From Oscillospiraceae bacterium (GTDB lineage Bacteria > Bacillota > Clostridia > UMGS1883), in the NCBI GenBank assembly GCA_015069065.1, contig SVJI01000001.1:1-54110 (forward strand): DNA of 54,110 nt, written 5' to 3'. The notes below the pieces were generated by a model, which worked only from the letters and a program-made list of their open reading frames with translations, did no database searches and was not told the DNA's origin. Shown here in pieces: positions 18,924-54,110 of the stretch. Both the position numbers and the translations under genes were made by a program. The first letter of the stretch is position 1. The number at the start of each line of letters is the position of its first letter.

Positions 18924-19062
18924 AAAGCTTACCCGTTGATTACACTACATTATCTAAAATTATACAAAGCCTTACAAACCCTTTTGTTAAGCGGTTTATA
19001 AGGCTTTCTGTCTGTAAAATCCTTTTAAATCCAAAGAGTCTCAAAAACGAATTTTTTTCGAT

Positions 19063-19084
19063 TTTGGTGGAAATTTGGTGGAAA
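19063..19084 (+). repeat. perfect tandem 11-mer x2 (TTTGGTGGAAA) abutting a promoter
   Basis: Units at 19063-19073 and 19074-19084, 3 nt upstream of the -35 hexamer of the HipA-like gene promoter. Confidence 0.8.
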
Positions 19085-19087
19085 TGA

Positions 19088-19116
19088 TTGCACGCAGATT
19101 TTATTTATGTTATACT
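19088..19116 (+). promoter_or_regulatory. promoter of the HipA-like gene
   Basis: TTGCAC (19088-19093), 17 nt, TATACT (19111-19116), 44 nt upstream of the ATG. Confidence 0.5.
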
Positions 19117-19159
19117 TAATACAAATATATGGTAGCATATTTTAGAGAGGAGGATAAAA

Positions 19160-20302
19160 ATGATTTCTTCATATGAACTAAAACTATATGATGAAACTCT
19201 CTTAACTTTTAATATGGCTGAAAAAGGTTTGGAAGGTCTTGTTGCTGAAATTGATTATATAGATAAAGATAAGAAAAATATCTTCCCTTTGGATTTAGAG
19301 GTATCAAATGCAGGAATTATTAAATGGCTTAGAAAACGTGTTATTCCAAAAAACCGAAGATTCGTAGATGAAATATTAAAAACGCTGAACTTATCTCAAA
19401 ACGATACAAAAGGTATAATCGACGTATGTAAAGGCTTATCACTTAACGATAGTTATTGGGTTGTTCCAAAAGGGTTTGAAGGTAAATTTTCGGAATATAA
19501 TCTATATGAAAACAGATTTTCTGAAATTCTGTCTTTAGTTGCATACACAGGCGTAGGCAGTTCAAACAAAGCATTTTCAACATCTCCTGAACTAACTACT
19601 AATGGAATGCTTCCTAAAGCATGGCGCTTTGTAGAAAACGATGGTATATATCTTTATAAAGGCGGAACCGACGGAGCTGTTAATTCAGGTAAAGAGCCTT
19701 ACAGCGAGTATTATGCAAGTCAGATTGCCGCAGCAATGGGACTTAACGCAGTAAAGTACGAATTAGAAAACTGGAAAGGAATTCTTGCCTCTAAATGCAA
19801 ATTATTTACCGATATTGATACTTCTTTTATTCCAGTTGGAAGAATTGTTACGGACGGAGGAATTGCTGCTTGTCTGGAATATTATAAGAGCTTAGGAAAT
19901 GAATTTTACGAGCAGTTAAAAAGTATGCTTGTATTTGATGCCGTAATTTACAACGAGGACCGTCATTTTGGTAATTTTGGTATTTTAAGAAATAATCACA
20001 CTGGCGAAATTCTGGCTCCGGCACCTATATTCGATAATGGTCTGTCGCTATTTAATTTTGCAATGGATGAAGATTTTAAGGATTTAGAATCTTATGCTAA
20101 AACACGTACTACCCCATACGGAGTATCTTTTGAAACAATTTGCACAGAAGCAATCGGCAAAAAACAGATTTCTGAATTACGTAAATTAATTGGATTTAAA
20201 TTCAACCGTCACAAAACAATGAACCTATCAGAAGAAAGATTGTGTTCTATTGAAAAATTGCTGCAAACGAGGATATCTCAGCTTATATCTTTAAGCAAAT
20301 AA
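19160..20302 (+). CDS. HipA-like kinase-domain protein (no HipB-type partner seen)
   Basis: ATG after GAGAGGAGGA. The C-terminal half contains VIYNEDRHFGNFGILRN and PIFDNGLSLF, which match the HipA_C catalytic-loop and Mg-binding patterns (D-x-H-x-x-N ... D-N/F-G). The only plus-strand gene between the tRNA fragment and locus 2. Confidence 0.6.
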   Translation: MISSYELKLYDETLLTFNMAEKGLEGLVAEIDYIDKDKKNIFPLDLEVSNAGIIKWLRKRVIPKNRRFVDEILKTLNLSQNDTKGIIDVCKGLSLNDSYWVVPKGFEGKFSEYNLYENRFSEILSLVAYTGVGSSNKAFSTSPELTTNGMLPKAWRFVENDGIYLYKGGTDGAVNSGKEPYSEYYASQIAAAMGLNAVKYELENWKGILASKCKLFTDIDTSFIPVGRIVTDGGIAACLEYYKSLGNEFYEQLKSMLVFDAVIYNEDRHFGNFGILRNNHTGEILAPAPIFDNGLSLFNFAMDEDFKDLESYAKTRTTPYGVSFETICTEAIGKKQISELRKLIGFKFNRHKTMNLSEERLCSIEKLLQTRISQLISLSK

Positions 20303-20336
20303 AGTCAATTATAAAGATAGCCATTCCCTATTATTC

Positions 20337-20380
20337 AAGCCATCTTCCTTACGACCTTTTGTCCTAAAGGAAGATGGCTT
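20337..20380. terminator. 14-bp perfect hairpin between convergent genes (bidirectional terminator)
   Basis: AAGCCATCTTCCTT (20337-20350), 16-nt loop, AAGGAAGATGGCTT (20367-20380), followed by TTACTGTT. Lies between the HipA-like gene (+) and the RpiB-like gene (-). Confidence 0.7.
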
Positions 20381-20431
20381 TACTGTTACTAATTAAGTTG
20401 TTTATTAAATCAGCAATGTAACAACCTCTTT

Positions 20432-21004
20432 TTACTCAGGTTTTGTTTCAAGAGTTAAGGGGAAATCCCCAAGCTTATTTACCTTAAATCCATTCTTTTT
20501 ATATTCCTCATAATCAAATTCTTCAAGCTCATCTATTGCAAGCTTGTGGAATTCGTAGAAGTTTTTCCACCACTCATAACCGCTGCCGAGCTCTGCATTG
20601 AGATATGCATCTGCTATATCACATCCCATTGCGGGGGCAACATAGAATGCACCCATCGCAAGCACGTTTACACCGTTACCTGTAATTGCACGAAGTGCGG
20701 CAGGCACGCTTTCAACAACACCTGCATGTACGTGGGGGCACTTGCTTGCCGCAATATGTATACCCATTCCTGTACCGCAGAAAAGAAGTGCTCTTTCAAA
20801 TTCGCCCTCTGAAATCATACTTCCTACTCTAAGACCTACCCTGTGGAACATAAGGTCTGTATCGTTGGGGTCAGAATCTGCTTTAACGCCCATATCGGTG
20901 ATTTCCCAACCTTTTTTACGAAGATGCTCACAAACTGCCTCTTTAAGAGGATAGCCTGCAAAATCTGCACCTACTACGAGCTTTTTGTCTTTTACTGTTT
21001 TCAT
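20432..21004 (-). CDS. RpiB/LacAB-family sugar isomerase with C-terminal extension (DhuI-like candidate)
   Basis: VGADFAGYPLKEAVCEHLRKKGWEITDMG and LFCGTGMGIHIAASKCPHVHAG are RpiB/LacAB signatures. A ~45-aa acidic/aromatic C-terminal tail is added. Last gene of the locus-2 operon. Confidence 0.75.
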   Translation of the reverse strand: MKTVKDKKLVVGADFAGYPLKEAVCEHLRKKGWEITDMGVKADSDPNDTDLMFHRVGLRVGSMISEGEFERALLFCGTGMGIHIAASKCPHVHAGVVESVPAALRAITGNGVNVLAMGAFYVAPAMGCDIADAYLNAELGSGYEWWKNFYEFHKLAIDELEEFDYEEYKKNGFKVNKLGDFPLTLETKPE

Positions 21005-21070
21005 TTTTATTAATCCTTTCTTTTTATAGTTAAATCAAGTGTTACAATTATACATTAAAATATTCAACCT

Positions 21071-21700
21071 TTATATTTCATCAGATTCTTCTTCATAAAA
21101 ATCTTCTAAACTTTCTTCGTCTTCAAGAAATTCGTCATATATATAATCTTCTTCAAACATAGTTTCCTCAAAGTTTAAATCTATGTCTGTTTCTTCTGGT
21201 TCTTCTTTTTCCTCTGCAGCAACTTCTGATACACTTTTCTTTGATATGGTAATAATATTTGTTCCACCTTCCCATACAACTTCAAAATCAAATTTTTCTG
21301 CTATATACCTTATTGGAAACATTGTCCTTTCGTTAATAATTATAGGTGCAACATCAATGGTTTCCTCTGACCCATTAAAAAATGCATTTACTGATCCAAT
21401 CTTAAGATTAATTTCATCTTCTTTATATTTTAAGGTAATCCTGGATTCCAAAGAATCCCACTCTACTGTTCCTCCTATAGTTTCAATAATCGAACGAATA
21501 GGAATTAACGTTCTTCCTTCATGTATTATCGGGGCAGTATTTCTTCCGGGATCAATTTCTGCCAATTCACCATTAACACTCATCTGTGAATTTCCTACTT
21601 TTATTTTAATTACAACATCTGATGCCTCACTTGCAGAAACCAGAAATGAAGAAACACACATACTTATTAACAAAGCAATAAATACTTTTTTTAAAGTCAT
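21071..21700 (-). CDS. secreted copper-amine-oxidase-N-terminal-like (stalk) domain protein with a highly acidic tail
   Basis: Start moved to ATG 21700 (AAGGAGAG 6 nt upstream), giving MTLKKVFIALLISMCVSSFLVSASEA. Two repeats of the Cu_amine_oxidN1 pattern (GRTLIPIRSIIETIGGTVEWD; ERTMFPIRYIAEKFDFEVVWE). C-terminal ~50 aa are mostly E/D. Confidence 0.65.
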   Translation of the reverse strand: MTLKKVFIALLISMCVSSFLVSASEASDVVIKIKVGNSQMSVNGELAEIDPGRNTAPIIHEGRTLIPIRSIIETIGGTVEWDSLESRITLKYKEDEINLKIGSVNAFFNGSEETIDVAPIIINERTMFPIRYIAEKFDFEVVWEGGTNIITISKKSVSEVAAEEKEEPEETDIDLNFEETMFEEDYIYDEFLEDEESLEDFYEEESDEI

Positions 21701-21726
21701 TACAATCTCTCCTTTACATGGCGTCA

Positions 21727-23973: not shown

Positions 23974-23997
23974 AAAACACTCAACTTTCAATATTTT

Positions 23998-25128: not shown

Positions 25129-25148
25129 ATAAATCCCTCTTTTCTTAT

Positions 25149-27212: not shown

Positions 27213-27274
27213 ATTTTCCTCCGTAACCCTTATAATTTCACTATAGCACTGCCGTTTCAGTATGTCAACAACCT

Positions 27275-27901: not shown

Positions 27902-27932
27902 CAATCAACCTCTCCTTTTATACTGATTCTTA

Positions 27933-31292: not shown

Positions 31293-33840
31293 AGTTTTTA
31301 TCCCCGATTTGTTTATTTAATTCAAAGTCCTCTGCAACCGGTTCCAGATTGCTTTTCCAACAAAATACTCTGGCTTTTGATATTTTTCCGTTATTTATTT
31401 CCGGTAAGTTCACAGTTTTATATCCATCATTTTTTACACTTACGTCAATTACTCTCATATCACATAATTGACCGTCTGATGAATATAGTGCTGCGTAAAC
31501 CTTCAAGCCAAGATCTTCTCCTGTATAGTTACCTATGTTAACAGTGCCTTTTAACGCACCGTTTTCCTGAGTATCAATATAACCACTGAAGGCTATCTCG
31601 TCCTCGATAATTTCGTTACAGACAACAACAAGGCATACTTCGTCATTTTTACGGTCATATGCATATAAATTATACATGCCCTCATGAAAATCATCTAATC
31701 TTATCCTTGACGCAAACATACCATTTTCGTCAGGAACATACATAGATAAAAACAGTATGTTTCCTGTTGAATCAGTTACTTTAACCGGTACACCTACACC
31801 ACTTTCACCTTTACCTACAAAGCATAATGTCTGATTTGCCTTATCGATATATGATGAAATAATAACATCGTTGTTTACCTTTGCATACTGCACAATCATG
31901 CTGCTGCTATCTAAAGTAACAATCGTGTCACTATCTTCATTTGAGCCGGTAATCAAAAAATGATATATACCATCACCGTCGTACTTTACACTTATGTTTT
32001 TGAGCTTATCTTCACTTTCTGCCCAACTAAGTGCCGTAGGAACTGAAATACTATCTGAATATTTATATGCTGATACTGCAAATTTATTATTGTCTTCAAG
32101 CTGTGCTTTAACTTCTGCATCCTCTGCCAAAACATTAATATTAAGCACGGAATTATCATTATAAAATGTGAAGCTTCCGTCCTGCTGTTTATTAGCTGTC
32201 TGCACAGCAGGATAAAACCGTATTTTTAAATCATTCTCAGTATCAGTCTTCGCTTCATCAAAAATCAGCAAAACATCAGGCTTAACATATATAAAATGCC
32301 GCACATATTTGTCAACACCGGTTTCCTCTCTATATGCTTCCGTTCCATCCGCTGCTACATACACATAGTCTTCCTGTTCATCAAATTTTATTATATGCGG
32401 ATTTGCCTTCGATGCAGCTATAACGTCCTTGTTGTAAAGGTCATACTGTCCGTCATCATTAACGGTAAGAGTATTATGCCATCTGGTATACCCCTTTGCA
32501 TACCCATCGTCTACAATCTGTAAGTCTTTATAAGCAAACAGCATAAAACTGTTTATATCAGGATGTGAATGGGTCAGCCCTAAATTGTAAGTTTCATCAA
32601 AGCCTTTATTAATAAAGGCTTCTCTTGCTATTGTACCCATAGTAGGGCCACATCTGAAGGCAATCACTGATTCCTGATTAAACCATACATTTCTCAAAAA
32701 AACAAAACCAAGCTGTTCAAAGAACTTATTGTTGGGATACTTATCACTTTCCCAGGGAGCTAAACTATCAGAATCAGGCTGATAGTATAAAAATAGCTGC
32801 CACATTTCATTTCTATGCCCCGCAGTTGAATTATCAATTCCATACTCAACATACCACTGCACAACGGGATTTTGGCTGATGTCAGCCAAATATGACATAT
32901 TTGAAACCCAAGAAAGATTATTATTTTGTGTACTGTCACCGAAGTTAAACACACCTATTATATGTTCATTTTTTCCCATTTGCGGAAGTCGTGTATAAAT
33001 TCCGTAATCAGCAGTATTTTGCAGAAACGGGTGCGTTGCATAGTCAATATTACAAAACTGCTTTGCAGTTTTAACGTAATATATAAGATGCGTTAATCCA
33101 TAGCTCCAATATGATGGGCCTTCCTGATATGTACCCTCTGTATTAATAAACGAAAACGTTTTTGAAAACCAATTATTAGACGTATTAAACCAGCTTTCTG
33201 CTTCGGAATATATATCATAAATTGCAGCAGCTGTTACAGCAAGTGATGATGCAGGTGTCCAGTAAAGGTTTGATAAATACTTTCTTTCCCACCAGCCGCC
33301 ATTATTCATAATACTGCCACGTGCAATAAGTAGTGTTTCTATCTCCTGCCTTTGAGTGATAGACAGGTCATGATACAGCCAATCATAGTAACATGATATG
33401 CCAACAAGCATATGCGATGCTGCAAGACTACAGTTTTCAAATTTTCCCCTTCCCCATGAAGGATAGCTTTTTGCTGCATTGAAGAACAATGCAGCAGCAT
33501 CCTTATACTCCTGTTTCCCAGAAATTTTGTACCCGAGAGAAAGCTTCATTATTGCATCTCCCACTGTACGCATCCACGTTTCTTCTATATTTGAATCAAC
33601 ATAATACTGCGTAGGTCCATCAACAACATACGTGCTTAATTCAGTTTCAAGCGCTGACCAGATATCTTTAAGCCTGCCATTGGCAAGTATACGTGCTCTG
33701 TCAAAATCCGCCTCGTCCATAATTACACGTGGATGTATATTAGTGTATTCATCCAGATTATTTTCTACGGCATATGCATTTATCTGTAAAAGAACTATAA
33801 TAAAAACTGTTAGCAAAACATAAAAACGTATTTTTCTCAT
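31285..33840 (-). CDS. secreted heparinase II/III-family polysaccharide lyase with C-terminal beta-sandwich
   Basis: Signal peptide MRKIRFYVLLTVFIIVLLQINAYA. Motifs HPRVIMDEADFDRA, SLAASHMLVGISCYYDWLYHDLS and GLTHSHPDINSFMLFAYKDLQIVDDGY. The last is the Hepar_II_III H-x-H-x-D...DxG-Y block. Confidence 0.8.
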   Translation of the reverse strand: MRKIRFYVLLTVFIIVLLQINAYAVENNLDEYTNIHPRVIMDEADFDRARILANGRLKDIWSALETELSTYVVDGPTQYYVDSNIEETWMRTVGDAIMKLSLGYKISGKQEYKDAAALFFNAAKSYPSWGRGKFENCSLAASHMLVGISCYYDWLYHDLSITQRQEIETLLIARGSIMNNGGWWERKYLSNLYWTPASSLAVTAAAIYDIYSEAESWFNTSNNWFSKTFSFINTEGTYQEGPSYWSYGLTHLIYYVKTAKQFCNIDYATHPFLQNTADYGIYTRLPQMGKNEHIIGVFNFGDSTQNNNLSWVSNMSYLADISQNPVVQWYVEYGIDNSTAGHRNEMWQLFLYYQPDSDSLAPWESDKYPNNKFFEQLGFVFLRNVWFNQESVIAFRCGPTMGTIAREAFINKGFDETYNLGLTHSHPDINSFMLFAYKDLQIVDDGYAKGYTRWHNTLTVNDDGQYDLYNKDVIAASKANPHIIKFDEQEDYVYVAADGTEAYREETGVDKYVRHFIYVKPDVLLIFDEAKTDTENDLKIRFYPAVQTANKQQDGSFTFYNDNSVLNINVLAEDAEVKAQLEDNNKFAVSAYKYSDSISVPTALSWAESEDKLKNISVKYDGDGIYHFLITGSNEDSDTIVTLDSSSMIVQYAKVNNDVIISSYIDKANQTLCFVGKGESGVGVPVKVTDSTGNILFLSMYVPDENGMFASRIRLDDFHEGMYNLYAYDRKNDEVCLVVVCNEIIEDEIAFSGYIDTQENGALKGTVNIGNYTGEDLGLKVYAALYSSDGQLCDMRVIDVSVKNDGYKTVNLPEINNGKISKARVFCWKSNLEPVAEDFELNKQIGDKNYE

Positions 33841-33842
33841 AA

Positions 33843-36455
33843 TTATTTTATCACCAACATATCAAGTACTGTACCGCCATATGAATATATAAGTACATTT
33901 GAACAGTCACTACCACCCAATGTATACGGGACCAAATCAGCATATGAACCAACCTGTACTCTTGCACCTGCCCCCATTGTGGAATCATAAACATATAAAT
34001 TCTTACCCACTCTTGTATATTCCAGTACATCCCGACTCATGTTATCATATGGTTGTGGCTGTGTCGTTGTAACCATAATATCATCATGCAAGTCATAAAG
34101 TTTTCCATACAAAAATCTTCTTGCATAGAAATTGCTGCTAGACGGATTTGAGCTTGAATTTATAGTTTTATCTTTAGCACTGAATACAAGCTCATATGCC
34201 TTTATTTCCTCATGCTTATCAATACTGATTCTGATTGCGTCGCCTTCTTTTAATGTTGAAATATCAAGACCTTTTTTCACGGGATAACTTACCTGAGCAC
34301 CACGATTAAACCCGCTAAGAAGATATGTTTCTTCACCATATTCATCAATCATTGTTTTAATCTTTGTAACAACAGTAAGATATGTTCCGTTGCTGTAATA
34401 TCCGGTATTAATATCATATCCAACCAAAACAATTACATCGCATTCATACGGATTTTGACTTCTGTAGGTAATAAAATCGGTATAATAAGCACCGCTTGAT
34501 AATTCGTTAACCGTCCATGCTGCGTATGAGTCCTCGTCCGAAAGGTCCGATGGTATAACAAATACCAACGCATCCGTATTTAGAAGTGTTTTACCGGTAA
34601 AATTACGTGTTGTGCCGCTGTAACGGTATTTGTTTTCGTTTCCTGTACAGTCAAAATCAACAGTTAACAAATCGTTATAATCACATATATCGGAAGCACA
34701 TGTATCCAGTATCCTGATTTCATTTTTTGAGTTTAGTCTGAACCTGACAACATTCGTATAAGCTGTGTTTTTAATCGCCTTATAAGCATCTGAATTAGAC
34801 TTCTTTCTGCCGTCTAAAATTACATTTTTAGCTGTGCTATATACAACAAATTTCCCGTCGTTTTCTTCGTCATATACAAAAATCTTAATCTCAAACTTTT
34901 TACGAAGATCATCAAATGCTATTGCCTTAATATATCCTGTCTCAAAGTTATACGGTTGTGGAACAAATGCTGCAATATTACCGTTTATGTCAATATAGAA
35001 GTATCCGTAATCACCTACTGACAGTTCGCTTTTCTCTATAGAGAAATCATGCGAAACATCAAATGAATACTCATCATCTAATGTAATAATATTATCATCA
35101 TCTATACTTGTTACAGCGCCTTCGACCACATTGTCGCTTCTGTATACTCTTATAAATTCATCAGCTTCATCAATCATCACACTAAGTATGTCTTTTTTAC
35201 TTATGTATGTTATATCAATCATTTCACCATCCGCTGAAAATATTTCATAAGTGTATTTATTAAGCTTTATAGGTGCAGCATCTTTTACATATATAGTTTC
35301 ATTTGATATATCAATAACTTCTGCAATATAGTTAACAAAGCTTCTGATAACAAAAACATCATATTTTCCGTCAGCGTTATTGTCTATACAGGTTATACTA
35401 CCGTTATTTATATCAAAAACAGATTCAGCAAAGCTATTTACTGCCTTCATATTATAAATTATTTCAGCGGCTTGATTAACTCTTATTTTTCTGCTTTTTC
35501 TGCCATCATAATATGACAGTGTTCCGTTTTTATAATCACTGTAATCTTTGGCGGTTATCACCAGTGATTTGTTTCTTTTATTAGTTACTATATATATAAG
35601 TTGATTCTGACCATCTGCTTCACGGTAAACTGCCGTTACATTGTATCCTAAGTACTTGTCTGTATTAACATCAGCTACGTTAATAAGAACATCATTTATC
35701 AGTGCATGTTTTTCAGCAACCGCAGAATCCGCATCGCTTAAGCCTGTATACTCATTCGCTTCAAAAACACCTTCTGCTACATATATGCTGTGATACATTG
35801 AAAGCAGCGTTCTGTTTTCGTACTGTTCTTTTATAATTTGTTTGCCTTCAATGGCAAATAAATCATAAACATTTGTGAGAAGCGCACTTTTCGTCATAGA
35901 TGCAAACACGCCCTGCGTGATGAATGCGTTAGGTGAAACCACCATTTTTGATAATATTCCTATTTCCTGTGCTGTAAAAACATCATTACGCTTTTTATAA
36001 TAAGATACTTCGTCAAAGCCCAGTAGTGAAATATAAATATCAGCAACTTCCTCATATGTACAGTACTCATTTAACTTTATATTAACACTTTGGTCAGCCT
36101 TTATTACACCGCTATCAATCAAAGATTTTACAGCTGCGGAGTATTTATCACCAACTGCAAGGTCTTTGAACAGATATTCTTTTTCCGTTACCGTATCAGC
36201 ATTTTCTTCAACTTCGGGTGCAGTATCTGTTACGTTTAAATTAAGAATTTTTGCTACTGTTTTATAAAACTCTCCTCTACTGACATATATATCGGGGTCA
36301 TACTTACCGAATTTGTCTTTTTCAATCATATCAAGAGCCATAAGAAAATCTATATCATTTCCTACGTCGACAGCAAAAGCTGTCACGTAGGAAAATAACA
36401 TTAACGAAGCAATAATGGCAATAAACAACACAAAAGATGCTATTCTTTTAGACAT
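33843..36455 (-). CDS. large secreted protein with degenerate SLH-like N-terminal repeats; paralogue of 1819..4551
   Basis: Signal peptide MSKRIASFVLFIAIIASLMLFSYVTAFA. SLH-like pieces (YVSRGEFYKTVAKILNL; FKDLAVGDKYSAAVKSLIDSGVIK). Same size and block order as the 910-aa protein. 1-nt overlap (TGATG) with the upstream gene. Confidence 0.55.
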   Translation of the reverse strand: MSKRIASFVLFIAIIASLMLFSYVTAFAVDVGNDIDFLMALDMIEKDKFGKYDPDIYVSRGEFYKTVAKILNLNVTDTAPEVEENADTVTEKEYLFKDLAVGDKYSAAVKSLIDSGVIKADQSVNIKLNEYCTYEEVADIYISLLGFDEVSYYKKRNDVFTAQEIGILSKMVVSPNAFITQGVFASMTKSALLTNVYDLFAIEGKQIIKEQYENRTLLSMYHSIYVAEGVFEANEYTGLSDADSAVAEKHALINDVLINVADVNTDKYLGYNVTAVYREADGQNQLIYIVTNKRNKSLVITAKDYSDYKNGTLSYYDGRKSRKIRVNQAAEIIYNMKAVNSFAESVFDINNGSITCIDNNADGKYDVFVIRSFVNYIAEVIDISNETIYVKDAAPIKLNKYTYEIFSADGEMIDITYISKKDILSVMIDEADEFIRVYRSDNVVEGAVTSIDDDNIITLDDEYSFDVSHDFSIEKSELSVGDYGYFYIDINGNIAAFVPQPYNFETGYIKAIAFDDLRKKFEIKIFVYDEENDGKFVVYSTAKNVILDGRKKSNSDAYKAIKNTAYTNVVRFRLNSKNEIRILDTCASDICDYNDLLTVDFDCTGNENKYRYSGTTRNFTGKTLLNTDALVFVIPSDLSDEDSYAAWTVNELSSGAYYTDFITYRSQNPYECDVIVLVGYDINTGYYSNGTYLTVVTKIKTMIDEYGEETYLLSGFNRGAQVSYPVKKGLDISTLKEGDAIRISIDKHEEIKAYELVFSAKDKTINSSSNPSSSNFYARRFLYGKLYDLHDDIMVTTTQPQPYDNMSRDVLEYTRVGKNLYVYDSTMGAGARVQVGSYADLVPYTLGGSDCSNVLIYSYGGTVLDMLVIK

Positions 36456-39400
36456 CAGTTTACCCCTCCTTTTTCAGTAAAGTACACTTCTGCTATACTG
36501 TTCCAAGAACTAACCGAATTACCTTTACAATAAAGTCTTACATATCTTCCGGTTGCTCCCTCCATATCAAATTCTTCAAATCCGTCAGTTGTACCACTGC
36601 TTTCACAGGATTTTACAGTCTTAAATCTTGAGCTTTTATTCTCATTGGAAATCTGAATATCAAAATATCCCTTTCGTGCGGTACCGCTCTGGAACGCAAT
36701 ATTAAGCTTATCAAATTTCTTTACAGAGCCAAAGTCAAATGTAATCCATTCGGTATATCCCTGTGACGACCATCTTGTTCCCATTTCACCATCATAAATA
36801 TACTCACCGTAGTTACCATCTGAACCTGAATATGTGATATTATATACATCCATATTACCAAAACCACGTATTGATTTTGTATGGATAACCAATTCCTGAG
36901 AGCTTGTACCGTCAACCGACGTTACCTTTACCTTACTGGTGCCAAACAAATCCTCGGATTTTTCAACATCTACAACTGCAAGGTTTTCATTAGGAACCGC
37001 ATAAATTTCAAGTTCTGAGCCGTAAATATACGCCTCGTACTCATTTTCCGTGCCTTCAATCAGGGTTGGTTTCACACCATTAACAGATAGAGAATAGAGA
37101 CCTGAGTCACTCAACAAAACATTTGTGAATATATTTATCACACTGTTTTCATTATCAATCTCTGTATATGCATTGAAATATTTTAACACCGACTGAAGCG
37201 AAAGCATCAAACTACCGTCTTTTACCATAGCTGCACGCTCCATATTATCGGGTTGACCATTAATGATGGCAGTATTACTTCCCGCAGTAAATTCAATAAC
37301 ATTTTTTTCATCTGACAACTGAACCTTTTGACCGTTATTCTCAGTCTTTACAGAAAGATTTAACAGCTCGGCAAACTTTTGGGCATCCATCATATCGAGG
37401 TCTTCGTATTTTGTATCATATACTTCTTTGATAACTTCATCTACTTTTACTACAGTAGCGTTGCTGTAATCATCAATTTTTACAGAATTATTTTCAATAT
37501 CTATGCTAATACGCTTTTTCCCGGTATTGAAAACTCTGCATTTTCCATCATTGCTTTCCTCTGAAATAAACGGCGTTTCCTGACCCTTAGGTGCCCATGA
37601 AAATGCCACAGGCTGTACCCACTCATTCGACTTATATGAAAGATACACACACATTTTATCCTTTGAAGCGACTTCTGTTCCGTGTCTTTCTGTCGTATCA
37701 TATGTTGCCTGACCGCCTGCCGTAGCATATGCACCATCGGCAACAAAAGGCTTTACATTGAGCACTGAATTATCGTTATTAAACGTATAACTGCCGTCAC
37801 GGTTTGTTACAACGTTCTGAACATAGGTAAAGTAACGAAGCTCCAACAAGTCATCCTTGTTAGCTGATTTAATATCATCAACAACGTAAAGCATATCATC
37901 ATTTTTCATATAAAGAATATGACGAACAAATTTTTCAAGTCCGGAATGTTCCAGGTAAGCTGCAGTACCATCACAAACAACATAAGTATAATCATCTGTT
38001 ACTTCGTAATGAATGATTTTGGGATCTGCAAGAGTTGCCTTTATTATGTCATTTGTTTTCGTCGCCTTTGCATCGTAACCATTATACTGACCTATTCCAT
38101 TAACTGTAAGTGTATTTTGTGTAGAGGTGTAGCTTACAACATAACCGTCATCTACAATCTGCCTGTCACCATATGCAAACAGTAAAAGGCTGTTAACATC
38201 AGGGTGAACGTGAGAGAGTCCGAGATTCCATGTTGTATCACGATTATCCTCTGTATATACCTTCATTGCATTATGTCCCATTGCAGGACCACATCTTACC
38301 GCAAACGCAGAACGATTATCATCCCATGCTGTTCTGCTGAAAACAAAGCCCATATCGTCATAGTAATTACTTGTAGAATAATTTTCAACATATGACTCTG
38401 CCTCAAGTGTTTCATCATAATAAAGAAGGTTTTTCCACATTTCGTATCTGTGACCCGCTGTACAATTTTCCATTATATAATGAACAAAATCCTGTACAAT
38501 TTTGTCATCAGTATAATCTGCAAAAAATGCCATACATGGCACATACTCCAATGAGCTTGTAGTTGCCGAATCAGAAAAATTAAATACACCAAGTATTGCA
38601 CCTGTCTTTGCGTCACCTAATCTTGGTAATCTTAAATCCATACCGAATCTTGAAGTCTTTTGTATATAAGGAACATCGGAAAAATCCATATTTAAAAAGT
38701 TCTTTGCTATGTTAAGATAATATACAAAGCTCTCCATCGCATATGACCAATATCCGGCACCTTCCTGATTTGCGCCGTCCACAGATATGTAACGGAATGT
38801 CCTTCCAAAGTATTCATTTGCAAATCTAAACCAATTCTCTGCATCCTTGTACTCGTCAAAAATGGCAGCGGCTACAACAGGTATGGAACCTGCACCCGTA
38901 TAATGCAGATTTGAAAGAGGCTTTCTTTTCCATGATTTTCCGCCCTTACTCATGATTGAGCCACGTTCTACGAGAATATTCAAAGCATTGTATCTGTCTG
39001 TAGCTGACAAATCATGATACAGCCAGTCGTAATAACAAGCAATACCAACAAGGGCATGGCTTGCCGCAAGACTGCTGTTTTCATAGTTGTCTCGTCCCCA
39101 TGCAGGATATTCGCACAGCTTATAGAAAAACTTTACAGCAGCATCCTTATATTTTTCATCGCCCGATATTCTATATACATAGCTGATTTTCATAAGGTCA
39201 TCAGCCACATCACGAATCCATGTTTCACCGCCATCACTTACTCTGTGATAATCGGGTGCGCCTTCTTTAATAACTGTATCTACATCTGCAACAAGAGCTT
39301 CATAAATATCCTTTAATTCACCCTGTGCCAATTTTTTGCTATGTTCAAATCCCTCGCTGTCAAGTAAAACTCTCGGATGAACACCACGGTATTTATCCAA

Positions 39401-40159
39401 AGCACTAAAATCCACATTACCTGAATCCGTATTTGGTTCGCTTATTTCACAAACTTTTATATCATCATAATAAACGTTGTTTCCCGGTAAAATTTTCGAA
39501 TTGAAACGAACTACAATTCTTGCAAGGCTTACCGGATTATTTAAAAGCATCTGTTTTGAGATTTTTTTGATGCCGTCAACATAAATATCTACCTTGTTTT
39601 TACTTGCATAACAGCAAAGCTTTATATTCGTCCATTTTTTGTTATTCAACTCTCCAAGACTGTGCGTTCCAGTAGGAGTAACAGAATAAATCATATTATC
39701 ATACATAGATATTACATTAAACTTTGCCGAGGTCGCACCCTCACCCAAATCTCCCCTTACCTCAAAATAAAGGGTTGAATTATTGTTATATGGTTTTATA
39801 CGATACGACACTTCAAAATCTATGCTTTCTTCCTCAGAGTATCCAATCGATTTATCAAGATACACCGTTTTTGTTGCTTCAGAGTCATTATAAAACTCTG
39901 CAATCTTATTATTTATACCCTCTTCTGCTATAGTCCTGATGTTTTCACCTATACCAACAGACCATTCAGTTGACGATTTTTGTACAGTATTGGAAGCACT
40001 TCCGTTAATTGGAGGTGTGCCTCCTATCGCATACCGTTCAAAATCATCCGAAAACAAAACTCTCTCTTTATCTGAAGCTGCATTAACTACAGGAAATACA
40101 GAAAGTAACATCGTAAGTATTATTATTAAAGCAACGGATGTTCTAAACATATTTTTCAT
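36455..40159 (-). CDS. secreted multidomain heparinase II/III-family lyase (jelly-roll, lyase, CuAO-N-like, F5/8 type C/CBM32-like)
   Basis: Signal peptide MKNMFRTSVALIIILTMLLSVFPVVNA. N-terminal jelly-roll (VLFSDDFERYAIGG...VYYDDIKVCE). Lyase motifs SLAASHALVGIACYYDWLYHDLS and GLSHVHPDVNSLLLFAYGDRQIVDDGY. CuAO-N-like segment (AIINGQPDNMERAAMVKDGSLMLSLQSVLKYF). C-terminal discoidin-like YDGEMGTRWSSQGYTEWITFDF...RYVRLYCKGNSVSSWNSIAEV. Confidence 0.8.
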   Translation of the reverse strand: MKNMFRTSVALIIILTMLLSVFPVVNAASDKERVLFSDDFERYAIGGTPPINGSASNTVQKSSTEWSVGIGENIRTIAEEGINNKIAEFYNDSEATKTVYLDKSIGYSEEESIDFEVSYRIKPYNNNSTLYFEVRGDLGEGATSAKFNVISMYDNMIYSVTPTGTHSLGELNNKKWTNIKLCCYASKNKVDIYVDGIKKISKQMLLNNPVSLARIVVRFNSKILPGNNVYYDDIKVCEISEPNTDSGNVDFSALDKYRGVHPRVLLDSEGFEHSKKLAQGELKDIYEALVADVDTVIKEGAPDYHRVSDGGETWIRDVADDLMKISYVYRISGDEKYKDAAVKFFYKLCEYPAWGRDNYENSSLAASHALVGIACYYDWLYHDLSATDRYNALNILVERGSIMSKGGKSWKRKPLSNLHYTGAGSIPVVAAAIFDEYKDAENWFRFANEYFGRTFRYISVDGANQEGAGYWSYAMESFVYYLNIAKNFLNMDFSDVPYIQKTSRFGMDLRLPRLGDAKTGAILGVFNFSDSATTSSLEYVPCMAFFADYTDDKIVQDFVHYIMENCTAGHRYEMWKNLLYYDETLEAESYVENYSTSNYYDDMGFVFSRTAWDDNRSAFAVRCGPAMGHNAMKVYTEDNRDTTWNLGLSHVHPDVNSLLLFAYGDRQIVDDGYVVSYTSTQNTLTVNGIGQYNGYDAKATKTNDIIKATLADPKIIHYEVTDDYTYVVCDGTAAYLEHSGLEKFVRHILYMKNDDMLYVVDDIKSANKDDLLELRYFTYVQNVVTNRDGSYTFNNDNSVLNVKPFVADGAYATAGGQATYDTTERHGTEVASKDKMCVYLSYKSNEWVQPVAFSWAPKGQETPFISEESNDGKCRVFNTGKKRISIDIENNSVKIDDYSNATVVKVDEVIKEVYDTKYEDLDMMDAQKFAELLNLSVKTENNGQKVQLSDEKNVIEFTAGSNTAIINGQPDNMERAAMVKDGSLMLSLQSVLKYFNAYTEIDNENSVINIFTNVLLSDSGLYSLSVNGVKPTLIEGTENEYEAYIYGSELEIYAVPNENLAVVDVEKSEDLFGTSKVKVTSVDGTSSQELVIHTKSIRGFGNMDVYNITYSGSDGNYGEYIYDGEMGTRWSSQGYTEWITFDFGSVKKFDKLNIAFQSGTARKGYFDIQISNENKSSRFKTVKSCESSGTTDGFEEFDMEGATGRYVRLYCKGNSVSSWNSIAEVYFTEKGGVN

Positions 40160-45155: not shown

Positions 45156-45180
45156 TTTTTTATATCCTCCTTTAAAATAA

Positions 45181-46050: not shown

Positions 46051-46060
46051 ATTTCCCCTC

Positions 46061-48548: not shown

Positions 48549-48587
48549 CAACATCACCTCATATTTTTAATTACGGTTTACAGCTTC

Positions 48588-48617
48588 ATTATAAGTTGAT
48601 TTTTATAAAGTTTTCAA
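48588..48617 (-). promoter_or_regulatory. candidate promoter of the ABC importer/surface-protein operon
   Basis: On the minus strand: TTGAAA (RC of 48612-48617), 18 nt, TATAAT (RC of 48588-48593), in the only sizeable intergenic gap (160 nt) of locus 2. Confidence 0.35.
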
Positions 48618-48708
48618 TACGCACATTTAAACATCTTTGGTCATTTTTAAAGATTTTTAAACTTTATACACCCTTTTTTTGTTGCAACATTAACAAATTT
48701 TCCAAAAT

Positions 48709-49959: not shown

Positions 49960-50047
49960 ACCAATACCTCTTTCCTTTTAATATAATGATGTAATAACAT
50001 TATATCATTTCTTAATTTGTTAAACTTCTAATAATTACACCAAACTA

Positions 50048-50076
50048 TTGCACAAAGGATACTTTTTTGATATAAT
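50048..50076 (+). promoter_or_regulatory. promoter of the PocR/AraC regulator gene
   Basis: TTGCAC (50048-50053), 17 nt ending in TGa, then TATAAT (50071-50076), which is an extended -10. Lies 43 nt upstream of the ATG. Confidence 0.55.
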
Positions 50077-50118
50077 AATCAAAAATTGATGCTATATTTA
50101 CTATTAGGAGGAAGGAAA

Positions 50119-50967
50119 ATGCAATCTTTGCAAACATTTCTTGATATACTTACCAAAGGACGAAAACTCCATATTTGTGTTCATGATATATCCGGATTGC
50201 TGAAATCTCCAGAAAGATATCTTCCTTTCGAGTATCAGATACATTCAAAGAAGTTTTGCAATATTGCTAAATTCACAGAGCAAGGACTTGATTTTTGTCT
50301 CAATGCAAAAGACAAAGCGAATAATAAAGCAGTAAATGACGCTAACTCGTTTTGCGGACACTGTCCTTGGGGACTTTTTGAAGTGGCTCAACCGATTGTA
50401 CAAGATAAAAGTGTACAGGGAATTATATATGTTGGAAATTTCATTATAGATGAAAAAAAAACCAAAGAGCATATAATAAGAACAAGCAAGCTTTTAAATG
50501 TATCTCCTGAACCATTTTTTAATATGATTAACGAATGTGAAAACTTAACTGATATTTCTGAAGCTTTTCAGATAGCAGAAATTGTAAAGGACTATCTTTT
50601 GATGTTACCCTTTGAGGAACGTTCACAGTCCTCAAACAAACAATGGCTCGTTCGCAATATCAAGCACTATGCAAATGAATATTATGAAAAAAAGCTTTCT
50701 TTAAAGACGATTTCAAAGCTTTACTTTGTAAACGAAAAATATATAGGTAGGCTTTTTAAGAATCAGGTGGGAATGAGTTTTCACCAATATCTCAACGAAA
50801 TTCGTCTCAAAAAAGCTGAAGAATTACTGATAAATACCGATAAACAAATAATTGACATTGGAATAAAATGCGGATTTGAAAACGTCTCCTATTTTAATCG
50901 TATATTTAAACAAAAATATGGTATTACACCTACGGTCTTTCGTGAGGTTAACAGAAAACTCATATAA
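50119..50967 (+). CDS. AraC-family regulator with PocR-like Cys-rich sensory N-domain
   Basis: Start moved to ATG 50119 (AGGAGGAAGG upstream). N-domain carries FCNIAKFTEQGLDFCLNAKDKA...FCGHCPWGLFEVAQPIV. C-terminal AraC HTH (ISKLYFVNEKYIGRLFKNQVG...IGIKCGFENVSYFNRIFKQKYGITPTVFR). Confidence 0.8.
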   Translation: MQSLQTFLDILTKGRKLHICVHDISGLLKSPERYLPFEYQIHSKKFCNIAKFTEQGLDFCLNAKDKANNKAVNDANSFCGHCPWGLFEVAQPIVQDKSVQGIIYVGNFIIDEKKTKEHIIRTSKLLNVSPEPFFNMINECENLTDISEAFQIAEIVKDYLLMLPFEERSQSSNKQWLVRNIKHYANEYYEKKLSLKTISKLYFVNEKYIGRLFKNQVGMSFHQYLNEIRLKKAEELLINTDKQIIDIGIKCGFENVSYFNRIFKQKYGITPTVFREVNRKLI

Positions 50968-51185
50968 ATAGGCTCTATTTATATTGTAGATTCCAAAAAT
51001 TCTATAAAAAGTCTTATTGACAAAAGCAATAGTCCTATAAACCGTTATATAAAGCCAAATACTGACGCATTCAAAAAGAAATTCCCACGGGGGGGATTTT
51101 CTTCTTTTCTATGTGTAATTACTATATTTTTTATAATTAGAATAAAAAATTTTCAAAAAACGTGCAGAAAAAACAGCTCCACGGA

Positions 51186-51214
51186 TTGCAATGCTTTTAT
51201 AAGTAGCATATACT
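51186..51214 (+). promoter_or_regulatory. promoter-like site P1 (copy B)
   Basis: TTGCAA, 17 nt, TATACT. Confidence 0.45.
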
Positions 51215-51223
51215 TATCTCGTA

Positions 51224-51255
51224 AAAATGGTAAGCAGTTAAAATGGTAAGCAGTT
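51224..51255 (+). repeat. perfect tandem 16-mer x2 (AAAATGGTAAGCAGTT), copy B
   Basis: Units at 51224-51239 and 51240-51255, with the same sequence as copy A. Confidence 0.9.
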
Positions 51256-51405
51256 AAGCGTTTTTTTGATTTATTTATTCCAACTTTAACGGGATAACTA
51301 TGTCCAAAAATCGCTTTTTTATTTTTTTGAGGTTAATTAAACAAAGTAAAGTATAAAGGCATCTTGACAGATTTGTTGTTAAATTGTAAACTTTTGTCAA
51401 TCTGA

Positions 51406-51434
51406 TTTACAACGGCTATGTGGTATGATATTAT
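51406..51434 (+). promoter_or_regulatory. promoter P2 of the candidate ncRNA (copy B)
   Basis: TTTACA (51406-51411), 17 nt ending in TGa, TATTAT (51429-51434). Confidence 0.6.
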
Positions 51435-51442
51435 ATAATCAA

Positions 51443-51754
51443 TAATTAATTTATGCGTGGGGTTCCCTGGACTGACAAAGTCAGTCCTAGCATACTAGAT
51501 GTCGTGATTGTAATTAAAGCTAGCGGTATAGCTATGCCCATCTTTAGGGCATTTACTGTGAGCTTTATTAAGTATGATTGTATTTTACACTTTAAGTTAA
51601 TAAAGAATATGAGTTGTTTTAGTTAATCGGCAGGCAAAATAAGCCTATATTGACTTGAAATAGTTCCGAAAAGTCAGCAATGCTGACAAAGTGAATAAAG
51701 AGGTTAAAAGAATGTAGAATTAAATCCAAAAGGATTAGTCTGCATTCTTTTTTT
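51443..51754 (+). ncRNA. candidate structured ncRNA, ~310 nt, unknown class (copy B)
   Basis: Same promoter and terminator as copy A (AGAATGTAGA 51709-51718 pairs with TCTGCATTCT 51739-51748, T-run to 51754). Conserved 5' and 3' domains. Divergent core at 51595-51664. Confidence 0.6.
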
Positions 51755-51925
51755 GTCTGAAATCCTAAAAAGGAAGAATTGAAGTCCTACAGGCATTCTT
51801 TTGTACTGTCTTACAAATTAGTGTACGGACACAGGTTAATGAATGAATTAAGCAATTTTAAAACGCAAAGTTTTATCGGGTTTGTATGCGTACACTTTTG
51901 AAATCCGAAAAGATTAGACAGAATC

Positions 51926-51978
51926 TTGACGCAGTAGCGGCTGCGAAATATTTTTCATATGTCACCGCTATGACATAT
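51926..51978 (+). promoter_or_regulatory. promoter-like site P3 plus inverted repeat (copy B)
   Basis: TTGACG (51926-51931), 17 nt, TATTTT (51949-51954), then ATATGTCA-ccgcta-TGACATAT (51957-51978). Confidence 0.4.
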
Positions 51979-52234
51979 TTCAGCATCGGCAATACCAATA
52001 CCATTTGGAACGCACCTGAGTTTAGCAGGTATGATGCTACCGCAGAGTTTATACTCACCCATAAAGGGTTGCGGGAATATTACTAACCGAGCAATATGCC
52101 GATAGATAATACAAATCATACTAAATGGAGACAGAGATAATAAACAACCCTCAATACACCGATATAAAGGGAAATATATTTATTTCATATCGGGAAAAGA
52201 AGAGGTAACGGGTGTTAAAGAGAACGATATTGCT

Positions 52235-53131
52235 ATGTCTGAAAGAAAGGATCTTCAGATGACTAACTTATATAAAAATTTAGAAACTCAATTCAACAAA
52301 GTATTCAGACATTTAAAGACAGGCAGCTTTAAAACAAGAGAACGTTATGCAAAAGCTTTTAAAAGATTTATGGTATATTTTGCAAAAGAATATCATCTTC
52401 AAAAGCTTTCAAACATTTCTGAAAAGCACATACTTTCATATCTGAACTACTTACAGAAAAAAGGTAATGCTGCATCAACAATAAAAACAGAACTTGCAGC
52501 TATACGCTTTTTCCACGACAATCTGCCTTATGCAAAATATACTCTGCCGACAAATGACGAGCTTGAATTAAAAAGACGTACATTTGGTGGAGTAGACAGA
52601 AGCTGGGACAGTAGAGAATACAATCTTATGGTAGCAAAAGCAATAGAAACTAACCATAACGATTATGTTGCTATTCTTACTCTTGCAAGGTACGCAGGAC
52701 TAAGACTTGAAGAATGTTTTCGCATTGATACAAATGATGCGGAAAAAGCACTTCAAACAGAGAAGCTATTTGTTAAAGGTAAAGGCGGTCTTACAAGATA
52801 TGTGCCTATTAACAAAAGCATTGAAATTGCACTTGCAAATTCTCTTAAAAATGTAAAACGTGGAGAAAAGTTATTTGTAAGAAACAACGACAAAACCCAT
52901 CTTACAATGAAAAGACTTCAATGTTTTATCGCATATCACAGAAAAGAAATTACCGAAGAACGTATTACTTTTCACGGATTACGCCATACATATGCACACG
53001 AAAAGTATAACGAGTTCATAAACAGTGGTAAAAATGAAAAAGAAGCACGGAGAATGGTATCCGAGCTTCTGGGGCATCACAGAGATGATGTAACAAGAAT
53101 ATATCTCTACGGCGGTGATGAGAATGTTTAA
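52235..53131 (+). CDS. small tyrosine recombinase (XerC/D-like, no arm-binding domain)
   Basis: SAM-like N-domain (RERYAKAFKRFMVYFAKEY...ASTIKTELAAIRFFHD). Catalytic set ARYAGLRLEE, HGLRHTYAH and LLGHHRDDVTRIYL. The start may instead be the in-frame ATG at 52259, which overlaps (ATGA) the stop of a 16-codon leader ORF beginning at the module GTG (52212). Confidence 0.85.
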   Translation: MSERKDLQMTNLYKNLETQFNKVFRHLKTGSFKTRERYAKAFKRFMVYFAKEYHLQKLSNISEKHILSYLNYLQKKGNAASTIKTELAAIRFFHDNLPYAKYTLPTNDELELKRRTFGGVDRSWDSREYNLMVAKAIETNHNDYVAILTLARYAGLRLEECFRIDTNDAEKALQTEKLFVKGKGGLTRYVPINKSIEIALANSLKNVKRGEKLFVRNNDKTHLTMKRLQCFIAYHRKEITEERITFHGLRHTYAHEKYNEFINSGKNEKEARRMVSELLGHHRDDVTRIYLYGGDENV

Positions 53132-53297
53132 TTCTTACCCCGATGTTTTATCTGTAAAGCAGCTATGCGAAATACTTGACATAGGCAAAAACACCGCATA
53201 CAAGCTGTTACAAAGCGGAGAGATAAAGAGTATAAAGATTGGAAAGGTATATAAAATACAAAAAAAATGTTTGAAAGATTTTTTAAACAATCGTTAG
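53118..53297 (+). CDS. xis: excisionase-family HTH DNA-binding protein
   Basis: ...LSVKQLCEILDIGKNTAYKLLQSGEIKSIKIGKVYKIQKKCLKDFLNNR is homologous to 17412..17570. Start uncertain (ATG 53118 or 53124). It overlaps the recombinase stop. Confidence 0.75.
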   Translation: MRMFNSYPDVLSVKQLCEILDIGKNTAYKLLQSGEIKSIKIGKVYKIQKKCLKDFLNNR

Positions 53298-53309
53298 TTG
53301 ATTTATGTG

Positions 53310-53352
53310 CTACCCAATGATATAATAATTCTATAGTGTAATCATTGGGTAG
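53310..53352 (+). other. stem-loop between xis and int (copy B)
   Basis: CTACCCAATGAT (53310-53321), 19-nt loop, ATCATTGGGTAG (53341-53352): 12 perfect bp and no U-tract. Confidence 0.55.
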
Positions 53353-53379
53353 TGCTTTCTAAGAAAGGCAGGTTACTCA

Positions 53380-54110
53380 ATGAAAAATTCAGTTAAAGCA
53401 TATTTGAGAGAAAAATCAGGCTCAAAATGCTATTCATGTATATTAAAATGGGAGGAATATGGAAAGCTAAAAAGCAAAGAAATAAGTACAGGAATTGAAA
53501 TCAAGGGCAATAACAAACGAGCTGCAAAAAAACGAATTGAAGAGATACGGGAAGAATTTAAGAAAAAGGTAACAAGAAGCGGTTTTACAGAATATAAGGA
53601 TATGTTTTTTGAAGATTACATAGAAAAATGGGTTAATGAGCAAGAAAGCTTCTTAAAACCAACCACTTTGTCAGGGTATAAAGGAATAGTTAAAAATCAT
53701 ATAATTCCTTTTTTCTCAAATAGAAAAATCTTACTTGTCGATGTTAAGCCGCAGCATATTCAGGAATATTATAACTCAAAAGCACAAAAAGGGCTTTCCC
53801 CCGGAAGTGTACAAAGGCATCATTCTTTAATCAGAAAAGCTTTACAGAATGCTGTAATGAAAGATGTTATTCTCTACAATCCTGCTGACAGAACACAAAG
53901 ACCTAAACAATCAAAATACAATCCTAAAATATATGATGCAGAACAATTAAAAAGATTGTTGATGTCAGTTAGAGAAACACCTATAGAGGTGCCGATAACA
54001 ATATGCTGTCATTATGCTTTAAGACGAGGAGAGGTTTTAGGCTTACAGTGGAAGAACATTGATTTTGATAAAAGGATTATAACTATACAAAACAGTGTAG
54101 TACGTGCAGG
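53380..54110 (+). CDS. int: tyrosine integrase with N-terminal arm-binding domain, 5' part (runs off the right edge)
   Basis: Absent from the ORF track (open at the edge). ATG 53380 after AAGAAAGGCAGG. Translation MKNSVKAYLREKSGSKCYSCILKWEEYGKLKSKEISTGIEIKGNNKRAAKKRIEEI...KNHIIPFFSNRKI...CCHYALRRGEVLGLQWKNIDF is colinear with integrase A, with matches at roughly 4 of 10 positions by eye. Confidence 0.85.
   Translation, partial: MKNSVKAYLREKSGSKCYSCILKWEEYGKLKSKEISTGIEIKGNNKRAAKKRIEEIREEFKKKVTRSGFTEYKDMFFEDYIEKWVNEQESFLKPTTLSGYKGIVKNHIIPFFSNRKILLVDVKPQHIQEYYNSKAQKGLSPGSVQRHHSLIRKALQNAVMKDVILYNPADRTQRPKQSKYNPKIYDAEQLKRLLMSVRETPIEVPITICCHYALRRGEVLGLQWKNIDFDKRIITIQNSVVRA

Follow-up and report, generated by a model that had tools for sequence, protein, structure and literature searches.

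A polysaccharide-utilization locus of a ruminant-gut Clostridia bacterium as the probable cargo of a tyrosine-integrase island at tRNA-Leu(TAA), in tandem with a related island

Introduction

In gut Bacteroidetes, polysaccharide-utilization loci (PULs) for porphyran and agarose are carried on integrative and conjugative elements (ICEs). Mobile PULs are well documented in that group, whereas the gain and loss of whole glycan pathways in gut Firmicutes is much less clear. Specifically, 47 PULs of the SusC/SusD type have been placed on mobile genetic elements in gut Bacteroidetes (PMC6907783), and, in tandems of functional elements, the integrases usually share their specificity while being distantly related (PMC5704250). 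Here, we analyze a stretch of 54,110 nucleotides (nt) from a spore-forming Clostridia bacterium of ruminant feces (contig SVJI01000001.1, ~36% GC; hereafter, the window), in which two minus-strand glycan loci are each followed by a plus-strand integration module. NCBI assigns an identical protein to a "Ruminococcaceae bacterium" metagenome-assembled genome (MAG), and the nearest genomes are MAGs of Oscillospiraceae or Clostridia. Our results make it highly probable that the second of these, locus 2, is the cargo of a 35.8-kb genomic island (island 2) acquired by tyrosine-integrase integration at tRNA-Leu(TAA). That this island stands in tandem with an older, related one (island 1, made up of locus 1, module A, xis1, and int1) is largely supported. 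The kind of element, a tandem accretion of tyrosine-integrase islands, is already known.

The locus resembles the mobile PULs of Bacteroidetes in that an integrated element of a gut bacterium carries a whole glycan system together with its regulator and transporter. It differs from them in its ATP-binding cassette (ABC) importer and its enzymes anchored by S-layer homology (SLH) domains, with no SusC/D, and in that the carrier is a nonconjugative tRNA island rather than an ICE.

Results

Island ends at tRNA-Leu(TAA)

The attachment (att) sites and the features beside them are as follows, with positions beyond 54110 given as window equivalents on contig L001.

18768-18798, plus strand: three copies of GTTAGAAAA at 11-nt spacing, directly past the int1 stop; candidate Int1 arm-type sites
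18813-18867, minus strand: terminator-hairpin flank of the tRNA gene, repeated along with the tRNA fragment
18868-18923, minus strand: tRNA-Leu(TAA) 3′ fragment of 56 nt (nt 33-88), from the first base of the anticodon loop through CCA
18924-19061, plus strand: left arm of island 2 (F), which also follows a tRNA fragment in loci L031 (89% identity) and L035 (90%) and a decayed fragment in L027 (84%)
19062-19085, plus strand: left copy of motif M, TTTTGGTGGAAATTTGGTGGAAAT, 24 nt, 138 nt inside the left end; candidate Int2 arm-type sites
54547-54570 (L001:12313-12336): right copy of M, identical, 13 nt past the int2 stop codon
54649-54736 (L001:12415-12502), minus strand: intact tRNA-Leu(TAA), 114 nt beyond int2

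ARAGORN found no tRNA in the window. A preliminary description of this DNA had let the island begin at a tRNA-Leu fragment, and 18924 is indeed exactly the first base after that scar. It had also proposed that the contig be extended to the right end of island 2. Longer contigs with the same proteins carry the window rightward past the end of int2, and it is there that the intact tRNA-Leu(TAA) lies. The fragment is identical to the corresponding part of the intact gene (L001:12415-12470), and identity breaks at the first base of the anticodon loop. Flank included, the exact repeat spans 76 nt (18848-18923 and L001:12395-12470), with a spacing of 35,781 bp between the copies, and is nested in a 111-nt repeat (with L001:12360-12470) whose seven mismatches all fall in the hairpin loop. 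The far end therefore does carry a repeat of the att core. The geometry is that of a reconstituted tRNA beside the integrase and a displaced 3′ fragment at the distal end, where it abuts int1, such that the shared att core at 18868-18923 closes island 1 on its right and opens island 2 on its left. To the right of the intact tRNA stands a CCA-adding enzyme gene, followed by an unrelated element with three large serine recombinases.

The left copy of M is the single match to TTTTGGTGGAAATTTGGTGGAAAT in the window, with 0 expected by chance, and the motif, a tandem direct repeat with an 11-nt period, is also present in L026 and L035 and is 87% alike in L040. GTTAGAAAA occurs five times in L031, beside an int1 relative of 78.6% identity. 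From their repeat structure and position, both would be arm-type sites of the respective integrases.

The tandem layout is real rather than an assembly artifact, as the int1-scar-hipA and int2-tRNA-CCA junctions recur in independent JGI, ENA, and Logan assemblies, and read depth in the source runs is even (10-14x) across locus 1, int1, hipA, and locus 2.

Related loci in other genomes

A scan of genome and metagenome collections with the 3′ half of the tRNA returned 11 loci. Four of these (L028, L029, L034, and L036) carry an intact tRNA; the island motif is not in the readable flank of the last three, and L028 ends 63 nt beyond the search pattern. L034 is an empty site, consisting of native flank and intact tRNA. 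In L035, a native downstream flank 80% identical to that of L034 is followed by the fragment, F, and an exact M, such that the two loci differ by the fragment, F, and M inserted directly at the tRNA. Read from its open reading frames (ORFs), the L035 cargo comprises a nucleotidyltransferase/HEPN-like pair, a membrane protein, a PHP phosphatase-like protein, a major facilitator superfamily (MFS) transporter, and a protein like glycoside hydrolase family 88 (GH88). Three marks of a tRNA island are thereby in hand, with int2 beside the intact tRNA-Leu(TAA), a distal direct repeat, and an empty site, the last in another species (L034).

Further, int2 relatives of 83-84% identity lie beside tRNA-Leu(TAA) with M in other organisms, within a different chromosomal flank (L026 and L040). 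In L040, the chromosome continues with BipA, not with the CCA enzyme, other sugar genes lie upstream, and the int2-type gene has neither xis nor module. Of an int2-type gene, L030 retains just the last bases, together with an M-like motif.

L027 has no integrase. It presents a decayed fragment, F, a degenerate M, the hairpin, and an intact tRNA as one contiguous stretch (L027:4290-4652). In DNA, its F, M, and hairpin match the window at 84-89% identity, against only 48% at the protein level for its CCA enzyme; the nearest relatives of the window organism's CCA enzyme stand at 83% and then 54%. Given that the ends of L027 are far more alike than its CCA enzyme, they represent mobile DNA that has spread between distant hosts. 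By its structure, L027 is a cargo-less scar, comparable to a cis-mobilizable element (CIME).

The same locus bears on an alternative in which the island is real, but in which island 2 crossed over at M rather than at the tRNA. The island would then run from 19086 to the right M, and the fragment and F would be an older scar of island 1. In L027, F, M, 25 nt, the hairpin, and the tRNA are contiguous, homology to the window breaks exactly at both M edges, and, taken alone, the locus would fit a crossover at M equally well, which counts against the tRNA as the site of exchange. We consider this alternative improbable, and M was dropped as the crossover site, given that L034 and L035 share a native flank with the insertion directly at the tRNA, that the fragment stops exactly at the start of the anticodon loop, and that M is an 11-nt-period direct repeat like arm sites, not an inverted-repeat core. 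The anticodon loop is a classic location of tyrosine-integrase crossovers in tRNA genes. Further, int1 has the analogous 11-nt-period GTTAGAAAA repeat in the same place, and L027 itself is explained by a deletion between two M copies. The identity of its F and M, set against that of the adjacent core gene, marks them as element DNA rather than native chromosome. Integration at the tRNA therefore remains the preferred reading.

The preliminary description had suggested that strains be compared for the presence or absence of each block. The comparison yielded an empty site (L034), other cargo (L035), and a cargo-less scar (L027), rather than relatives that carry both loci at this site without the integrase modules.

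Backbone and cargo in metagenomes

We compared the source runs (X1-X6, feces collected in 2018) with further runs from cattle and sheep guts and similar material. The region from int1 across the scar to hipA (18400-19600) was represented by 68-84% of sampled words in X1-X6 and by 25-48% in 14 further ruminant-gut or gut runs. The core of PUL 2 (31300-40100) reached 95-100% in X1-X6 and elsewhere only 5%, in one unrelated run; for locus 1 (1800-9400), the values were 97-100% in X1-X6 and ~32% in four bovine runs. Depth followed the same pattern. In X9, hipA stood at 16-20x, whereas 21001-51095 ranged from about 0 to 8x, and mostly from 0 to 4x, in X8, X9, X10, and X25-X27. At ~51096, the start of module B, depth in X9 jumped from about 0 to 160-190x; over the module, rec, and xis2, it ranged across 62-189x in X9 and 51-104x in X25. 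The gene rpiB (20432-21004) was set aside, as it is a conserved gene to whose high depth many species contribute. In the bovine and sheep runs X8, X9, X10, and X25, M is followed by other sequences.

Since the end modules are deep in the bovine and sheep runs and the interior is almost absent, the ends constitute a conserved, abundant, multicopy backbone. It consists of F, M, and hipA on the left and of the module, optionally rec, xis, int, M, and the hairpin on the right. The 30-kb interior, including the PocR/AraC regulator, is strain-specific cargo; the regulator is counted here because its gene is missing from the bovine runs. In other genomes and metagenomes, the backbone recurs with different interiors, with none, or not at all.

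Within the source population itself, a ~67-kb deletion has taken out the two glycan loci along with int1 and the 5′ part of int2 (its first ~201 codons). Its right breakpoint and the unitig depths on either side are:

53983-53984, no strand: right breakpoint of the deletion (contigs L049 and L050)
Island side: 11.7x in X1, 10.3x in X2, 13.3x in X3, 7.3x in X4
Deletion junction: 37.6x in X1, 27.2x in X2, 42.3x in X3, 23.1x in X4
Shared 3′ part of int2: 40.7x in X1, 47.3x in X2, 55.8x in X3, 34.7x in X4

The junction joins int2 codon ~202 to a position 7 nt upstream of a gene, here gene X, ~12.9 kb to the left of window position 1, with a microhomology of 2 nt (TA). Specifically, L049:1-127 and L050:1-127 are the start region of gene X (also L055:15721-15847), followed by int2. 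Many contigs, the window included, end 127 nt past 53983, that is, at 54110; the window ends there because the deletion makes a branch in the k=127 graph. With the junction at 23-42x and the island side at 7-13x, ~75% of the X1-X4 population is without the ~67-kb block. The loss is an illegitimate deletion, not an att-mediated one, and it inactivates int2. It demonstrates that the loci are dispensable and variable and says nothing for integrase activity. Taken together, both loci are missing from about three-quarters of the source population, the PUL 2 core is confined to X1-X6, and the cattle and sheep runs hold the end modules without the interior, such that the loci do not belong to a conserved core genome.

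Integrases, excisionases, and mobility

17412-17570, plus strand: xis1, excisionase-type HTH_17 protein of 52 amino acids (aa) (Pfam HTH_17, E 1e-14)
17640-18761, plus strand: int1, tyrosine integrase of island 1, 373 aa, with Pfam Phage_integrase and SAM-like N-terminal domains
52235-53131, plus strand: rec, XerC/D-like tyrosine recombinase, 298 aa (Pfam, NCBIfam)
53115-53297, plus strand: xis2, excisionase (TIGR01764 "excise", 42.1 bits against a cut-off of 28.8)
53380-54110, plus strand: int2, tyrosine integrase, the first 243 of 384 codons being in the window and the gene ending at window-equivalent 54534

The order read by the preliminary description at the right end (module, recombinase, xis, and int, reading outward) agrees with the Pfam and NCBIfam domains, and locus 1 ends alike, in module A, xis1, int1, and the tRNA scar. 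Its view of two related islands in tandem holds for the module and for xis (xis1 and xis2 DNA being 84-86% identical), but not for the integrases, which are only 42% identical at the protein level. The catalytic residues R...HxxR...H...Y are present in both integrases, and int1, int2, xis1, and xis2 are all intact genes. The recombinase gene rec is placed exactly between module and xis in island 2 and is lacking in island 1. In L031, a relative of 91% identity holds the same position beside an int1-type integrase. Hence, rec is an optional backbone gene. Some bovine contigs link the module end to just past xis2, skipping rec and xis2.

Pfam scans of the 23 genes from 19160 to the window end found no relaxase, coupling protein, type IV secretion system (T4SS), or phage structural family, in line with the earlier statement that relaxase, coupling protein, and phage genes are lacking. 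Island 2 consequently differs from a canonical integrative and mobilizable element (IME), for want of an own relaxase among its proteins; from an ICE, whose T4SS and coupling protein genes are not among the 23; and from a prophage or satellite, as capsid, terminase, tail, and replication families are absent among the Pfam matches. Beyond the window, to the right of the CCA enzyme gene and ~2 kb away from tRNA-Leu, lies another mobile element (L001:14745-20897). It comprises a DUF6076 gene and three neighboring genes for large serine recombinases and is a conceivable helper for the islands.

It could alternatively be argued that the loci are long-resident chromosomal genes, that the integrase modules and the fragment are dead relics of small elements, and that the 30 kb never moved. 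Transfer genes were not found and an excision product was not seen. The composition is alike, ~10-kb islands without glycan genes or module carry, at their ends, xis and integrases of ~52% identity to int2, and the L040 int2-type gene stands beside sugar genes without xis or module. This explanation has little probability in our assessment, given that the whole 35.8 kb, rather than a small element, is enclosed by the att repeat, by M, and by conserved end modules, that the repeat is exact over 76 nt, and that the integrase and excisionase genes of both islands are intact. Further, L035 has unrelated cargo beyond the same left end, and bovine strains retain hipA at 99% identity with 21.0-51.1 kb missing.

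Several observations nevertheless weigh against integration of locus 2 as island cargo at tRNA-Leu. The GC content of the cargo (0.36) is no different from that of the flanks (0.33-0.36), and transfer and phage structural families are wanting among the 23 genes, as described above. The sole loss event seen is the illegitimate deletion through int2. Same-species empty sites were not found, since all contigs with the exact CCA enzyme that reach far enough to the left carry int2. The metagenome runs are k=31 unitigs, which cannot phase a 76-nt repeat, such that attP and attB forms are out of their reach. With respect to the tandem, L031, from another species, has the order rec relative, xis relative, int1 relative, five GTTAGAAAA copies, fragment, and F, the same order as the window; the repeated order of int1-type integrase, fragment, and F may point to an old, vertically inherited tandem. 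Finally, the left end of island 1, which the preliminary description had proposed to look for, did not emerge. Neither a tRNA fragment nor a GTTAGAAAA repeat occurs within 16 kb to the left of the window, and, of the att copies of a tandem array, the middle and right ones were found. Locus 1 continues through those 16 kb with genes for GH4, an esterase, a metallophosphatase, a rhamnosidase, PGA_cap, and an MFS transporter, as well as gene X, and every contig that leads leftward ends at the deletion branch point.

Cargo genes and the left-end hipA-like gene

1-15720, minus strand: locus 1, glycan genes, followed by module A, xis1, and int1
19160-20302, plus strand: hipA-like gene (HipA_C match weak, 25.8 bits, below the Pfam cut-off; nothing in NCBIfam)
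20432-49959, minus strand: locus 2, cargo of 18 consecutive genes forming a Gram-positive PUL (Pfam), adjoined by the regulator
50086-50967, plus strand: PocR/AraC regulator, divergent from the cargo and codirectional with module, rec, xis, and int

The cargo products are RpiB (20432-21004), a protein with a Cu_amine_oxidN1 domain, a 754-aa AraC regulator, GH88, a rhamnosidase-like protein, two GDSL esterases, GH20, a xylose-isomerase-like TIM barrel, two or three heparinase II/III-like (DUF4962) proteins, an SLH protein, a solute-binding protein with two permeases, and an FAD oxidoreductase. Regulators (AraC and PocR), a transporter, and carbohydrate-active enzymes are thus co-located by Pfam, as expected of a Gram-positive PUL. 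RpiB and the TIM-barrel protein are both of a sugar-isomerase type, and the combination of GH88 with heparinase II/III-like lyases suggests a substrate glycan that contains uronic acids. The earlier count of 22 consecutive minus-strand genes falls to 18. The divergent PocR/AraC regulator that had been described is borne out by Pfam PocR, HTH_18, and HTH_AraC domains.

An orphan HipA-like gene had been said to open the interval. Such a gene is present at 19160, although its HipA_C match is below cut-off, and it behaves as left-end backbone rather than as cargo, being 99% identical in bovine and sheep runs without the cargo. L035 has its nucleotidyltransferase/HEPN-like gene pair in the same place. 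This position suggests an addiction or defense function at the left end of the island.

The noncoding module

15972-17414, plus strand: module A (island 1), repeat families D1-D20 shared with 51015-52214 at 83-97% identity
16758-17037, no strand: insertion of 280 nt with 51-nt imperfect inverted ends, inside module A and not in module B
51015-52234, plus strand: module B (island 2), ~1.2 kb, upstream of rec-xis2-int2

The module lies upstream of (rec)-xis-int and is codirectional with the sugar-sensing PocR/AraC gene. It contains promoter-like sites and a 16-nt direct repeat present twice in each copy (16178-16209 and 51224-51255). A stretch of ~800 nt folds far better than shuffled sequence (z = -5.9), and an alignment of four module copies (A, B, L014, and L031) has 180 consensus pairs, 16 of them with compensatory changes. 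The hairpin at 51467-51490 covaries throughout these copies. Between species, conservation of the module (81%) is close to that of int1 DNA (77%).

No conserved ORF was found in the module, and Rfam gave no match at the gathering threshold over the whole window or in E-value mode over 15700-19200, other than one hairpin that matched a miRNA model by chance. Module A had no match in plasmid and phage collections (distant blastn), nor did the module and rec in IMG/VR. The idea of a decayed gene was rejected, as tblastn with the proteins upstream of xis in distant relatives gave nothing. So were small ORFs in the module, which are not conserved and one of which overlies the fully covarying hairpin. 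In a fecal run labeled "transcriptomic", sequences related to rec, xis, and parts of the module occurred at low depth and are indistinguishable from DNA carry-over.

The 280-nt insertion looks like a miniature inverted-repeat transposable element (MITE)-type element. Its copy depth is very high in several ruminant metagenomes, and one contig reads precisely across the site without it. In a further metagenome contig (L014/L019:1-4822; JGI 3300018878, Ga0187910_10004361), xis1, int1, and hipA stand as in the window behind a module variant (L014:3399-4822), whose left ~800 nt are ~9% diverged from module A and whose neighbors differ (GH88, a GDSL_3 esterase, and a DeoR-type HTH protein). This contig is either a third island with a module or a chimeric join through the repeat. 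Surplus module depth in X1-X4 fits further genomic copies.

The module is likely a regulatory element, or possibly bears an oriT. We also put forward, as a speculation that is more probably wrong than right, that it is a new large structured RNA, or an RNA combined with an oriT-like DNA element, that controls excision or helper-dependent transfer. It would then define a family of modular islands, very abundant and so far undescribed, in ruminant-gut Oscillospiraceae-like Clostridia, in which integrases (and with them target sites) and cargo (glycan systems) are swapped around a constant module/xis core.

Discussion

In the mechanism we propose, Int2 would have recombined attP with the anticodon loop of tRNA-Leu, M would serve as its arm-type sites, and Xis2 would set the direction. 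Island 2 would thereby have entered the tRNA copy that island 1 had reconstituted, which is accretion. With neither relaxase nor T4SS, transfer from cell to cell would proceed through a helper or by an unrelated route, and the island may no longer be mobile.

For a Gram-positive PUL on a tRNA island, this case supplies exact boundaries, the att structure, and the backbone modules, and it shows how gut Firmicutes can acquire and shed entire sugar-degrading pathways as blocks. In other ruminant strains, this backbone is combined with different cargo, and most cells of one sample series have lost a 67-kb stretch with the two loci. Three questions become directly testable, namely whether island cargo is the currency in which glycan niches of the rumen and hindgut are exchanged, whether the islands are moved by a helper element, and what function the conserved noncoding module has.

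Among described systems, the vcrABC islands of Dehalococcoides at ssrA are alike in that a metabolic operon rides on an integrase island at the 3′ end of a stable RNA gene, with direct repeats of the target and presence or absence by strain. As described, they differ in their target (ssrA, not tRNA-Leu), in their integrase families, and in having no common noncoding module (PMC3146451). Mobilizable genomic islands (MGIs) without a relaxase, in the sense of Daccord et al., such as those mobilized by SXT/R391, likewise combine an integrase with an excision factor, integrate site-specifically, and have no relaxase or T4SS, such that mobility would depend on a helper. They are, however, defined by an oriT that mimics that of the helper and live in Vibrio hosts rather than in Clostridia (PMC5704250).

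The closest counterparts are the accretion tandems, namely ICESt1/ICESt3 with their CIMEs in Streptococcus thermophilus and the IME tandems at tRNA genes, which resemble the present case in its apparent head-to-tail pair of elements with a shared internal att site (PMC5704250). As in those arrays, the target gene is rebuilt at the integrase-proximal end, the integrases have one site specificity but are distantly related (42% identity here), and relatives carry decayed, cargo-less att-att scars of CIME-like form (L027). In contrast to them, neither element described here encodes a conjugation or mobilization protein, the cargo is a 30-kb catabolic block, and what the two islands hold in common is not the integrase but a 1.2-kb noncoding module together with xis.

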